Part shown: positions 1 to 3,364 of the stretch, in pieces
Layout: each line of letters begins with the position of its first letter
Numbering within the stretch: position 1 is the stretch's first letter
Origin: a virus
Direction: 5' to 3' (one strand)
Virus genome (UHGV): UHGV-1351569
DNA: 64,000 nucleotides
Program-made: the position numbers and the translations under genes
The notes under the pieces: model-generated
What the model saw: the letters and a program-made list of their open reading frames with translations, nothing else
Told to the model about the DNA's origin: nothing
Databases searched by the model: none

Positions 1-16
1 TCATAATCGGAATGCA

Positions 17-346
17 ATGATGACAGACACGCAACTTTTCGAATATCTTTATTTTTCGCCAAAAACTATTAAAAATAAATTGGTGAATCATTTTGAAATT
101 TTGGCAAATAACAACGTCTTGAGCGAATTTTATCCTAAGCAATACAAATTACAAAAAGGCGTATTCAAAGGATGCAGAGTTTTGTGTACTGCTCCTAATG
201 CAAGATTAATGAATAAAATTCCATATTTTACCATGGAATTTATTGATGGACCTTTTAAAGGACTAATCACACAGAGTTTAATGGCATATGATTCTGAGCC
301 ATTTTTAATTAAAGAACAATCTTGGATAAATTTATTTTCTAATTGA
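17..346 (+). CDS. hypothetical protein (vs-region small ORF)
   Basis: 109-aa ORF from track; dense same-strand gene packing; no recognisable motif. Confidence 0.5.
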
Positions 347-353
347 GGTTTAT

Positions 354-716
354 ATGAAAGCATATCAAATTCTTGAAGGCACACATAAAGGCACTATTTA
401 TTTTGAAGATGGTATTCAAGCACGAATTATTGTTTCTAAAACCTTTAAAGAGGACTCTTTTGTAGACCCAGAAATTTTCTATGGTTTGCATGCCCGTGAA
501 ATTGAAATTGAGCAACAGCCTACAGTTAAAATTGAAGGTGGTCAACACCTGAACGTTAACGTTCTGCGTCGTGAAACTCTGGAAGATGCAGTTAAGCATC
601 CGGAAAAATATCCACAGCTGACCATCCGTGTATCCGGTTATGCAGTTCGCTTTAACTCTCTGACTCCGGAACAGCAGCGCGACGTTATCGCTCGTACCTT
701 CACTGAGAGTTTGTAA
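354..716 (+). CDS. GrcA/YfiD-like autonomous glycyl radical cofactor (T4 Y06I-like)
   Basis: C-terminal [24 protein letters not shown] matches the glycyl-radical RVSGY motif of PFL/GrcA; RBS gaggtt before ATG. Confidence 0.8.
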
Positions 717-937
717 TGGCAAAGATAATTATTGAAGGTTCTAAAGATGTGCTAAATGCTTTCGCCGAGTGGTTTAGTAATTCAGGCGAACAGCAATTTA
801 ATGAAGCATGGAATATGGGTGATATTGATGGAATTTATCCTACGACAGAAATTTCTGTTCAGGGATATGGCATTCATGAACCTATTCGTTTAGTTGAATA
901 TGATTTAGGTACTGGTGAGGAAGTAAAATATGATTGA
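716..937 (+). CDS. hypothetical protein, 73 aa
   Basis: ORF start overlaps the previous stop (translational coupling). Confidence 0.5.
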   Translation: MAKIIIEGSKDVLNAFAEWFSNSGEQQFNEAWNMGDIDGIYPTTEISVQGYGIHEPIRLVEYDLGTGEEVKYD

Positions 938-1196
938 AGATATTAAGGGTTATAAGCCACATACTGAAGAGAAAATCGGTAAAGTGAATGCTATCAAAGA
1001 TGCTGAAGTTCGTTTAGGACTTATCTTTGACGCTTTATATGATGAATTTTGGGAAGCACTAGATAATTGCGAAGACTGTGAACTCGCGAAGAATTATGCC
1101 GAAAGCCTTGATCAGTTAACTATTGCTAAAACGAAACTCAAAGAAGCCAGTATGTGGGCTTGCCGTGCAGTGTTCCAACCAGAGGAAAAATACTAA
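930..1196 (+). CDS. hypothetical protein, 88 aa (vs-cluster)
   Basis: ORF from track, overlapping-stop coupling. Confidence 0.5.
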
Positions 1197-1474
1197 TGGC
1201 TCAATTAAGCGCAGGGTTTGGTTATGAGTATTATACTGCCCCTCGTCGTGTATCTGCTGCTCCTAAGAAAATTCAGAGTCTTGATGACTTCCAGGAAGTA
1301 GTTCGTAACGCTTTCCAGGACTATGCACGTTATCTTAAAGAAGATTCACAGGACTGTCTCGAAGAAGATGAAATTGCTTACTATACGCAGCGTCTTGAAC
1401 AGCTCAAAAATCTACATGAGGTTCGTGCAGAAGTTTCAAAGTCTATGAATAAATTGATTAGATTTAAAGAATAA
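1196..1474 (+). CDS. hypothetical protein, 92 aa (vs-cluster)
   Basis: ATG at 1196 overlaps previous stop (taATG) and follows agaggaaaaa RBS; the track's 1154 GTG start is less likely. Confidence 0.5.
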
Positions 1475-1476
1475 TT

Positions 1477-1506
1477 GTTTACTTTTCCTCTTGACTGTGG
1501 TATAAT
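1477..1506 (+). promoter_or_regulatory. T4-type early (sigma70) promoter upstream of regB
   Basis: GTTTAC at 1477-1482, 18-bp spacer, TGgTATAAT extended -10 at 1501-1506. Confidence 0.6.
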
Positions 1507-1533
1507 TTTTCTATCAGTTAAGAGGAGAACAAC

Positions 1534-1995
1534 ATGACTATCAACACAGAAGTTTTTATCCGTCGAAATAAGCTCCGTCGTCACTTTGAGTTGGAGTTTC
1601 GTCAAATTAACAATGAGATTCGTGAGGCATCAAAAGCAGCAGGGGTCTCATCGTTTCATCTAAAATATTCTCAACATCTTCTTGATCGCGCAATTCAACG
1701 GGAGATTGATGAGACATACGTTTTTGAATTATTCCATAAAATAAAAGACCATGTTTTAGAAGTTAATGAATTCCTGAGTATGCCTCCGCGTCCTGACATT
1801 GACGAGGATTTTATTGATGGGGTTGAATACCGTCCTGGACGTTTAGAAATCACAGATGGAAATCTTTGGCTTGGATTTACAGTTTGTAAACCTAATGCGA
1901 AGTTCAAAGACCCGTCGCTTCAGTGCAGGATGGCAATTATCAACAGTCGTCGTTTACCAGGAAAGGCTTCTAAAGCAGTAATTAAAACTCAATGA
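1534..1995 (+). CDS. regB: RegB sequence-specific endoribonuclease
   Basis: 153 aa; sequence and size match recalled T4 RegB; position between vs genes and tk side. Confidence 0.85.
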   Translation: MTINTEVFIRRNKLRRHFELEFRQINNEIREASKAAGVSSFHLKYSQHLLDRAIQREIDETYVFELFHKIKDHVLEVNEFLSMPPRPDIDEDFIDGVEYRPGRLEITDGNLWLGFTVCKPNAKFKDPSLQCRMAIINSRRLPGKASKAVIKTQ

Positions 1996-2002
1996 GGTAA
2001 GC

Positions 2003-2548
2003 ATGAGAAAAGCACTACTCGCTGGTCTATTGGCCATTTCAATGATGGCACATAGCTCCGAGCATACTTTCAGTAATGTCCAACTCGATAACATGCGTTA
2101 CGCGTATCAATTCGGGGAACAATTTTCTAAGGATGGAAAATATAAAACACACAAAAATATCCACAAGAGCGGATTAGGTCATATAATGGCTGCTATTTTA
2201 TGGCAAGAAAGCTCTGGCGGAGTTAATTTAAAATCTAAACCAAAGCATCACGCTTACGGAATGTTCCAAAATTATTTGCCTACTATGCGAGCAAGAGTTA
2301 AGGAACTTGGTTATAATATGACCGACGCTGAAATAAAAAGAATGTTGAATAAACGATCCAATTCAGCTTCCTGGGCGTACATTGAACTTTCTTATTGGTT
2401 AAATATACATAAGGGCGATATAAGAAAAGCAATATCCTCTTATAATTCGGGATGGAATGTTAAAGCAGGTTCTAAATATGCTTCTGAAGTCCTAGAAAAG
2501 GCTAATTACCTTAAAAATAATAAACTTTTGGAAATAGTAAATGACTAA
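2003..2548 (+). CDS. secreted protein with N-terminal signal peptide (T4 vs.1 position)
   Basis: 181 aa; hydrophobic N-terminus MRKALLAGLLAISMMAHS. Confidence 0.6.
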   Translation: MRKALLAGLLAISMMAHSSEHTFSNVQLDNMRYAYQFGEQFSKDGKYKTHKNIHKSGLGHIMAAILWQESSGGVNLKSKPKHHAYGMFQNYLPTMRARVKELGYNMTDAEIKRMLNKRSNSASWAYIELSYWLNIHKGDIRKAISSYNSGWNVKAGSKYASEVLEKANYLKNNKLLEIVND

Positions 2549-2888
2549 AATTTTGGTTTTATGTATAGGATTAATTTCATTTTCTGCTTCTGCGTCAGCA
2601 GATACATCATATACTGAAATTAGAGAATATGTAAACCGCACTGCGGCAGATTATTGTGGGAAAAATAAAGCATGCCAAGCTGAATTTGCACAGAAATTAA
2701 TATATGCATATAAAGACGGAGAAAGAGATAAATCAAGCAGATACAAAAACGATACATTATTAAAACGATATGCTAAAAAGTGGAATACTTTAGAATGTTC
2801 AGTTGCGGAGGAGAAAGATAAAGCCGCTTGTCATTCAATGGTTGACCGTTTGGTAGATTCTTATAATCGAGGATTGAGTACTAGATGA
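2541..2888 (+). CDS. small exported protein (T4 vs position)
   Basis: 115 aa; N-terminal signal-like segment LVLCIGLISFSASASA; overlapping start/stop. Confidence 0.55.
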   Translation: MTKILVLCIGLISFSASASADTSYTEIREYVNRTAADYCGKNKACQAEFAQKLIYAYKDGERDKSSRYKNDTLLKRYAKKWNTLECSVAEEKDKAACHSMVDRLVDSYNRGLSTR

Positions 2889-3364
2889 TTGTAAAATATA
2901 TCAAGGGCGATATTGTCGCCCTATTTCTTCAAGGTAATATTATTGCGCACGGGTGTAACTGTTTTCATACAATGGGCAGTGGTGTAGCTGGTCAATTAGC
3001 AAGAGCCTATCCCAAAATTTTAGAAATAGATAAGACCACAACTGAATATGGTTCGCGTGAAAAACTCGGTGATATGTCTATTGTTTTTAAACATAAACCT
3101 AATGGTTTTGGCATATGTTATAACTTGTATACGCAATACGAACCAGGTCCTAATCTTGATTATGGTGCTTTAGTAAACTGCATGATAGAATTAAATCTAC
3201 AGGCAGAAACCCTTTTGTTTAAACCAGTAATTTACATTCCACGCATAGGTTGTGGTATTGCTGGCGGTGATTGGGATAAGGTTTCTAAATTAATCGACAT
3301 GTTTACTCCTGATATTGATTTAATAGTGGTGGATTATGAAAGTACATTACCCACATCCGTTTGA
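2885..3364 (+). CDS. macro-domain-like protein (putative ADP-ribose binding/processing)
   Basis: N-terminal GDIVALF...GNIIAHGCNCF...MGSGVAGQLARAYP resembles the macro-domain GDIT...NAAN...GGGV signature. Confidence 0.55.
   Translation: MIVKYIKGDIVALFLQGNIIAHGCNCFHTMGSGVAGQLARAYPKILEIDKTTTEYGSREKLGDMSIVFKHKPNGFGICYNLYTQYEPGPNLDYGALVNCMIELNLQAETLLFKPVIYIPRIGCGIAGGDWDKVSKLIDMFTPDIDLIVVDYESTLPTSV

Follow-up and report, generated by a model that had tools for sequence, protein, structure and literature searches.

Three small genes upstream of regB

The DNA upstream of regB in the virus genome UHGV-1351569, analysed here as a stretch of 64,000 nucleotides (the window, numbered from its first letter), contains three small open reading frames (ORFs) on the plus strand, of 73, 88 and 92 amino acids, at positions 716-937, 930-1196 and 1196-1474. 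An earlier note on this DNA had described them as three coupled ORFs of these lengths before regB, and this description holds. Positions 716-1474 very probably represent the vs.5-vs.4-vs.3 gene block of a T-even (Tequatrovirus) phage. Our high confidence applies jointly to the identity of the block, to its translation as a coupled run, and to its coding capacity for two independent sponges of immune signals, Acb2 (the product of vs.4) and TadIV-1 (the product of vs.3).

The block assignment starts from the DNA itself. Positions 640-1540 are about 98% identical to T4, and positions 1-2600 match many Tequatrovirus genomes with 97.6-98% identity, the top match being Escherichia phage ELT1. The order of genes, vs.7, vs.6, the three small ORFs, regB, vs.1, vs and tk.4, is shared with T4 and AR1. 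The T4 map given in the earlier note, with vs.3 to vs.5 in front of regB, is thus borne out by an orthologous block. The length of 92 amino acids for Vs.3 is counted from the ATG at 1196; a 106-amino-acid version with a GTG start in the list of ORFs is a mere upstream extension.

The genes of the block are tightly packed. The vs.6 stop codon TAA (714-716) and the vs.5 ATG at 716 have one base in common, in the sequence TAATG at 714-718. By sequence reading, the vs.5/vs.4 junction (914-937, plus strand) has a Shine-Dalgarno sequence GGTGAGGAAG at 914-923 and an ATG at 930 that lies ahead of, and overlaps with, the vs.5 stop codon TGA (935-937), so that the overlap ATGATTGA (930-937) holds both the vs.4 start and the vs.5 stop. 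The vs.4/vs.3 junction (1181-1198, plus strand), read in the same way, combines a Shine-Dalgarno sequence AGAGGAAA (1181-1188) with a TAATG stop/start (1194-1198), in which the vs.4 stop TAA (1194-1196) and the vs.3 ATG at 1196 again have one base in common. The GAGG cores of the Shine-Dalgarno sequences, at 917-920 for vs.4 and 1182-1185 for vs.3, are located 9-10 nucleotides before the starts. The overlapping stops and starts, together with the positions of the Shine-Dalgarno sequences, support translational coupling of the three ORFs.

Codon differences relative to T4 and AR1 are predominantly synonymous, with synonymous to non-synonymous ratios of 10:1 and 12:1 for vs.4, 4:1 and 9:2 for vs.3, and 3:1 for vs.5. 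This synonymous excess speaks for real genes and for purifying selection on all three. Homologues are present in 989 phage records for vs.5, 1237 for vs.4 and 694 for vs.3.

The 3' boundary of the block is marked by a predicted sigma-70-type early promoter of regB at 1478-1506 on the plus strand (TTTACT-17-TATAAT, the -10 box being extended by TG; a promoter scan gave 10 of 12 matches in addition to the TG), which is the same in T4, with no differences. The only GGAG, the motif cleaved by RegB, in positions 650-1560 is in regB's own Shine-Dalgarno sequence at 1524. Since GAGG is the core of the Shine-Dalgarno sequence in both vs.4 and vs.3, their messages are without a RegB site at the ribosome-binding sites. 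A complete match to the MotA-box middle promoter motif TGCTT[TC]A was not found inside the block, and an Rfam scan of positions 1-3000 gave no match.

The predicted sponges Vs.4/Acb2 and Vs.3/TadIV-1

The earlier note had suggested that one of the three ORFs might be Acb2, to be checked by aligning each of them to T4 Vs.4. In this check the middle ORF (vs.4 or acb2, 930-1196) aligns with the crystallised T4 Vs.4 (PDB 7UQ2) with 87 of 88 residues identical (E=1.4e-56). It also matches the Pfam family PF24729 (Acb2_Tad1_hairpin) over the entire profile (E=5.5e-20; 71.8 bits, with a cut-off of 27), so that the note's statement that the ORFs have no motifs does not apply to the 88-amino-acid protein. 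A further match is to phrog_717 (E=3.1e-32), the PHROG 717 family, which Jenson et al. (PMC10097602) gave as that of the Vs.4 homologues. We conclude that the middle ORF is, as judged by these alignments, the Vs.4/Acb2 orthologue, and that it would encode a hexameric sponge for cyclic dinucleotides (anti-CBASS 2, directed against the cyclic oligonucleotide-based antiphage signalling system, CBASS).

T4 Vs.4 binds cyclic GMP-AMP (cGAMP) with a dissociation constant of about 30 nM and forms a hexamer with three cGAMP molecules; Y8 and F82 stack on the ligand, and H11, K23 and R79 make polar contacts (PMC10097602). Hexamerisation requires L29, A66, A73 and A77, and partly F33, and T12I and S74N are loss-of-function alleles (PMC10097602). 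All twelve residues listed in that study (Y8, H11, T12, K23, L29, F33, A66, A73, S74, A77, R79 and F82) are retained in the window protein. The residues of the cyclic-dinucleotide pocket (Y8, F82, H11, K23, R79 and S74, as listed in PMC10097602 and PMC12657218) are at the same positions, and those of the hexamer interface (L29, F33, A66, A73 and A77) are kept in a protein that is 99% identical to the one for which the hexamer was shown. Acb2 has also been reported to set off the decoy system Panoptes, from which the alleles Y8A and F82C escape (PMC12657218).

The single difference from the T4 protein, F52L, is located in the variable tip of the hairpin. In an alignment across genera, the central segment with position 52 varies freely, and residues 1-35 and 66-88 are nearly invariant. 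L52 is found in AR1 Vs.4 as well, there together with D50; T4 has C50 and F52. The C50/L52 combination of the window protein appears to be unique within a collection of 50,697 phage genomes.

The second pocket of Acb2, which accommodates cyclic trinucleotides and involves R67 and T74 in PaMx33, has no counterpart in the window protein, which carries D61 and T68 instead, as T4 Acb2 does. T4 Acb2 binds cyclic dinucleotides, but not cyclic tri-AMP (cA3) or cyclic AMP-AMP-GMP (cAAG), even as the D61R mutant (PMC10312549). The trinucleotide pocket is a subfamily trait that is not universal in Acb2, and its absence does not exclude membership in the family. By analogy with T4, the Vs.4 of the window should not bind cyclic trinucleotides.

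The third ORF (vs.3 or tadIV-1, 1196-1474) is assigned to the published anti-type IV Thoeris sponge, Vs.3/TadIV-1, and the earlier note's view of the ORFs as uncharacterised is out of date for this gene next to acb2. The protein agrees with T4 Vs.3 in 91 of 92 residues. PDB 9WIW_A was hit at E=7.7e-45 when PDB sequences were searched with a profile, and at E=1.3e-37, along the entire length, with the single sequence as query. It also matches phrog_2037 (E=1.7e-40). Scans of Vs.3 and Vs.5 against Pfam, NCBIfam and PADLOC returned only sub-threshold noise.

The 9WIW structure stems from the study of Chen et al. (Nat Commun 2026;17:5047; PMC13243611), who identified T4 Vs.3 through T4 x T6 phage mating and renamed it TadIV-1. 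According to this work, TadIV-1 is both necessary and sufficient for the escape of T4 from type IV Thoeris, a system consisting of a TIR protein and a Caspase-like effector: Vs.3 alone blocks the system, and deletion of vs.3 sensitises T4 (PMC13243611). The purified protein is a specific sponge for N7-cyclic ADP-ribose (N7-cADPR), the signal of type IV Thoeris, and forms a homodimer of two-helix hairpins with a pocket formed by a disordered N-terminal loop, in which R17, R18 and K24 are needed for binding (PMC13243611). Activity is limited to long forms (about 90 amino acids; more than 80), and short forms of about 70 amino acids are inactive (PMC13243611).

The window encodes the long form of 92 amino acids, with R17, R18 and K24 retained, which by orthology would be the active, dimeric form. 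Short forms, which do not have residues 2-24, occur in Mosigvirus, Dhakavirus and Moonvirus. The only difference from T4 is at position 21, where the window protein has A and T4 has V; A is also found in AR1 and many T-even phages. At least 99% identity to the Vs.3 of the window is reached by the products of 64 phage records. An AlphaFold2 (AF2) monomer model has a low overall confidence (predicted local distance difference test, pLDDT, of 61.7), with values below 50 over residues 1-20, no secondary structure in residues 1-28, and helices at 29-53 and 57-91. This arrangement, with two antiparallel helices behind a flexible N-terminus, agrees with the description of the published crystal structure (PMC13243611). 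A fold search of the low-confidence model against the PDB gave no match, and 9WIW was absent from its output, helical hairpins being uninformative in such searches; 9WIW was found by searching the sequences of PDB chains.

Vs.5 and the slot before regB

The first ORF (vs.5, 716-937) appears from its sequence to be an intact vs.5 gene, coding for a small acidic alpha/beta protein of 73 amino acids. It aligns with the 58-amino-acid Vs.5 of the T4 reference over the first 17 residues only, and an alignment of the DNA reveals why: the reference, NC_000866.4 (63381-63557), is one base shorter than the window in vs.5, near positions 765-766. A 69-nucleotide probe with this deletion has 100% matches only in X04567.1, the original partial sequence, and in AF158101.6 and NC_000866.4. 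As the latter two are reference records derived from X04567.1, they have inherited the deletion. The extra base is present in all independently sequenced T4 genomes, and the 73-amino-acid form in essentially all T-even phages. In the resequenced T4 genomes MT984581.1 and HM137666.1, vs.5 has 222 nucleotides and an 8-nucleotide overlap with vs.4, the same as in the window. Most likely, then, the 58-amino-acid Vs.5 of the T4 reference is a legacy sequencing error, and the true Vs.5 has 73 residues. Constructs or searches built on the reference record would use a wrong or truncated Vs.5, and this may be part of the reason why a counter-defence role of the protein, if it has one, has been overlooked.

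Vs.5 is very acidic (isoelectric point of 4.1; 14 D/E, 4 K/R), and its match to phrog_1986 spans the full length. F16, W19, G24-E25-Q26, E30, G50, E61 and E68 are invariant. The AF2 model is confident (pLDDT 87), with a helix at 10-33 and strands at 44-49 and 58-63, but a fold search with it did not identify any known fold relative. The family is small and limited to T4-like phages, with 79 clusters in a search of 5.8 billion proteins and 18 matches in an exhaustive profile search of 1.84 billion representatives. Two long matches (P0125 and P0129) are FG-GAP repeat proteins that are picked up via a repeated WFENNGSQSFTE; we consider them coincidental, because the motif is in a predicted helix in Vs.5 and because repeats inflate the score. 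A literature search on Vs.5 found nothing relevant beyond the TadIV-1 study, with queries for "vs.3" and "vs.5" swamped by clinical text of the "vs. 3" kind.

In one record (P0101, 156 amino acids) from Enterobacter phage PG7, the N-terminal half is Vs.7-like, with 53% identity to the Vs.7 of the window over 53 residues, and the C-terminal half is a complete Vs.5. The fusion could hint that Vs.7 and Vs.5 are linked in function, or it could be a frameshift error in that record.

A comparison of T4-like phages shows that the genes between vs.5 and regB vary. Tequatrovirus and Mosigvirus have the order vs.6-vs.5-vs.4-vs.3, with a short vs.3 in Mosigvirus, and Gaprivervirus and Dhakavirus have vs.7-vs.5-vs.4-vs.3, with a short vs.3 in Dhakavirus. 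Additional small ORFs are inserted inside the block in Moonvirus and Karamvirus. Marfavirus has vs.5-vs.4 and Jiaodavirus has vs.5 (114 amino acids), vs.6 and vs.4, both without vs.3. In Gelderlandvirus UTK0003 and two distant T4-like contigs, vs.5 is directly 5' of regB and sponge genes are missing (vs.5 at 5001-5216 in L016, 5001-5207 in L019 and 3001-3231 in L007). Among the distant homologues, context comes from L016 and L019, three further ones being on contigs too short for this purpose. Salmonella phage Melville, although likewise a Gelderlandvirus, has a homologue of vs.4. Taken together, these gene orders indicate that vs.5 is the stable element, and that acb2 and tadIV-1 are cargo that is independently gained or lost between vs.5 and the regB promoter.

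Upstream of the block, the window contains vs.7 (17-346) and vs.6 (354-716), the latter predicted to code for a GrcA/YfiD-like autonomous glycyl-radical cofactor of 120 amino acids (Pfam Gly_radical, E=2.5e-18). This gene, too, varies: Tequatrovirus, Mosigvirus and Jiaodavirus have it, in Jiaodavirus after vs.5 and not before it, and it is missing from Gaprivervirus, Dhakavirus, Karamvirus and others. Downstream, regB is located at 1534-1995 (Pfam REGB_T4, E=3.8e-68). Three genes 3' of regB is a Tk.4-like ORF (2885-3364) of 159 amino acids, compared with 155 in T4 and AR1, whose homologues in T4, Moon and VAC36 carry A1pp or macro-domain phosphatase annotations; it could be a further candidate for the processing of signals or ADP-ribose.

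Names of proteins from the block have drifted in public records. The 9WIW chain was deposited as "Endoribonuclease", the Acb2 of Klebsiella phage KP182 (L003 3716-3997) is annotated as "RegB-like RNA endonuclease", and the Vs.5 of Klebsiella phage VAC36 (L004 3001-3231) as "pyrimidine dimer DNA glycosylase". Such names, which stem from neighbouring genes, hide anti-defence genes from keyword searches.

Model, alternatives and relation to known sponges

Together, our data suggest a model in which vs.5, vs.4 and vs.3 would be translated as one coupled run, with its end just ahead of the early promoter of regB, and in which the block would place two independent immune-signal sponges side by side. 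The Vs.4/Acb2 hexamer would have three pockets, each built by a pair of protomers, and would trap in them 3',3'-cGAMP and further cyclic dinucleotides; Y8 and F82 would stack on the bases, with H11, K23 and R79 holding them, and CBASS effectors such as CapV would stay inactive. Vs.3/TadIV-1, as a homodimer of two-helix hairpins, would sequester N7-cADPR with its flexible N-terminal loop (R17, R18 and K24) and keep the Caspase-like effector of type IV Thoeris inactive. Vs.5 would be an unrelated and more widely conserved small acidic protein that precedes the variable cargo. The basis of this model is orthology, residue conservation and predicted folds on our side, and, for the biochemical activities, what has been published on the T4 proteins, which are 99% identical to those of the window. 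The variants in the window, with F52L in Vs.4 and A21 in Vs.3, probably keep the activities of their T4 counterparts.

Vs.5 might itself be a third anti-defence or host-targeting factor, which would make the block a three-gene counter-defence cassette. Its small size and very acidic character, its strong conservation with invariant residues, its location directly 5' of two proven sponges, its confident model without a known fold relative, and its restriction to T4-like phages would all fit. Nevertheless, we regard this idea as unlikely. When the genes vs.3 to vs.8 were each tried against type IV Thoeris, only vs.3 had an effect (PMC13243611). Moreover, Vs.5 is conserved more widely and more stably than the sponges, is found beside vs.7/vs.8 and regB even where they are missing, and in one record is joined to a Vs.7-like domain. 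Stable conservation and the fusion are more in keeping with a conserved module than with variable cargo for counter-defence.

That the three coupled proteins should form a single heteromeric anti-defence machine, in which Acb2 might, for instance, be joined or regulated by Vs.5 or Vs.3, is very improbable in spite of the tight start/stop overlaps and of a vs.5-vs.4-vs.3 order that is kept in Tequatrovirus, Mosigvirus, Gaprivervirus and Dhakavirus. T4 Vs.4 on its own binds cGAMP and blocks CapV in vitro (PMC10097602), Vs.3 suffices against type IV Thoeris (PMC13243611), and the other genera have vs.5 alone before regB, vs.5 and vs.4 without vs.3, or, in Moonvirus and Karamvirus, inserted ORFs. 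The independent gain and loss of vs.4 and vs.3 argues against an obligate three-protein complex. Equally remote is the idea that Vs.3 is a diverged Acb2 paralogue that arose by tandem duplication. Both proteins are small acidic two-helix hairpins with an aromatic/basic N-terminal segment that binds a nucleotide signal, their architectures are similar when the AF2 model of Vs.3 is held against the published description of Acb2, their genes are adjacent, and two-helix structures in Acb2 and in sequestin were remarked on in the TadIV-1 paper (PMC13243611). We reject the paralogue explanation because profile-profile comparison of Vs.3 with Vs.4 by hhalign gave a probability of only 1.9%. In addition, Vs.3 has no PF24729 match at E<=1, and TadIV-1 is a dimer and Acb2 a hexamer, with the authors describing TadIV-1 as structurally distinct from all known sponges (PMC13243611). 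Vs.5 does not match PF24729 at E<=1 either, and its model is alpha/beta, not a helical hairpin. Finally, the window copies could be decayed or inactive alleles, marked by F52L in Vs.4 and by A21 in place of V in Vs.3, and the lack of an identical Vs.4 among the phage records would be in line with decay. We consider this extremely improbable, since the ORFs are full length with all functional residues intact, synonymous changes far exceed non-synonymous ones, position 52 of Vs.4 is in the hypervariable tip, and A21 is shared with AR1, near-identical Vs.3 proteins being encoded in 64 phage records.

Some points do weigh against the reading of the block as a functional pair of sponges next to a conserved Vs.5. 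The best match to the window's Vs.4 in the entire phage collection has 87 of 88 residues in common, and it is from sequence that we infer the activity of these exact Vs.4 and Vs.3 alleles. Phage T2 has a functional TadIV-1 and yet stays sensitive to type IV Thoeris (PMC13243611), so that carriage of TadIV-1 is no guarantee of resistance at the level of the phage. The N7-cADPR pocket of TadIV-1 is based on mutagenesis and co-folding models and has never been seen crystallographically (PMC13243611). What our explanation offers for Vs.5 is descriptive only.

The finding as such is already known, since the T4 counterparts of two of the three proteins, with 99% identity in each case, have been characterised as sponges. 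Its main use is for annotation: the phage is predicted to carry two sponges back to back, Acb2 against CBASS and TadIV-1 against type IV Thoeris. This pair helps to predict the host range on strains with CBASS or type IV Thoeris, and, as Acb2 is present, the phage is expected to be vulnerable to systems that work with decoys, such as Panoptes (PMC12657218). It is between vs.5 and the regB promoter that T4-like phages exchange cargo for counter-defence. As for vs.5 itself, its annotation in the T4 reference is in all likelihood wrong and should be extended to 73 amino acids.

Among known systems, the T4 proteins come closest. The Vs.4 of the window has the same length of 88 amino acids, genomic position, cGAMP-contact residues and hexamer-interface residues as T4 Vs.4/Acb2, and differs only by F52L. 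Similarity to the Acb2 of the Pseudomonas phage PaMx33 (8H2J/8IXZ) is remote (E=0.02): Y11 and K26 of PaMx33 Acb2 align with Y8 and K23 of the window protein, which is without the R67 of the cA3 pocket. T4 Vs.5, a conserved hypothetical protein of phrog_1986, is encoded at the same locus by nearly identical DNA, the reference record differing by its frameshift. Compared with T4 TadIV-1, the Vs.3 of the window has the same 92 amino acids in length, the long form and R17, R18 and K24, and differs at position 21 (A instead of V), whereas the crystallised UPEC07 TadIV-1 (101 amino acids) contains a 9-residue loop insertion that the window protein does not have.
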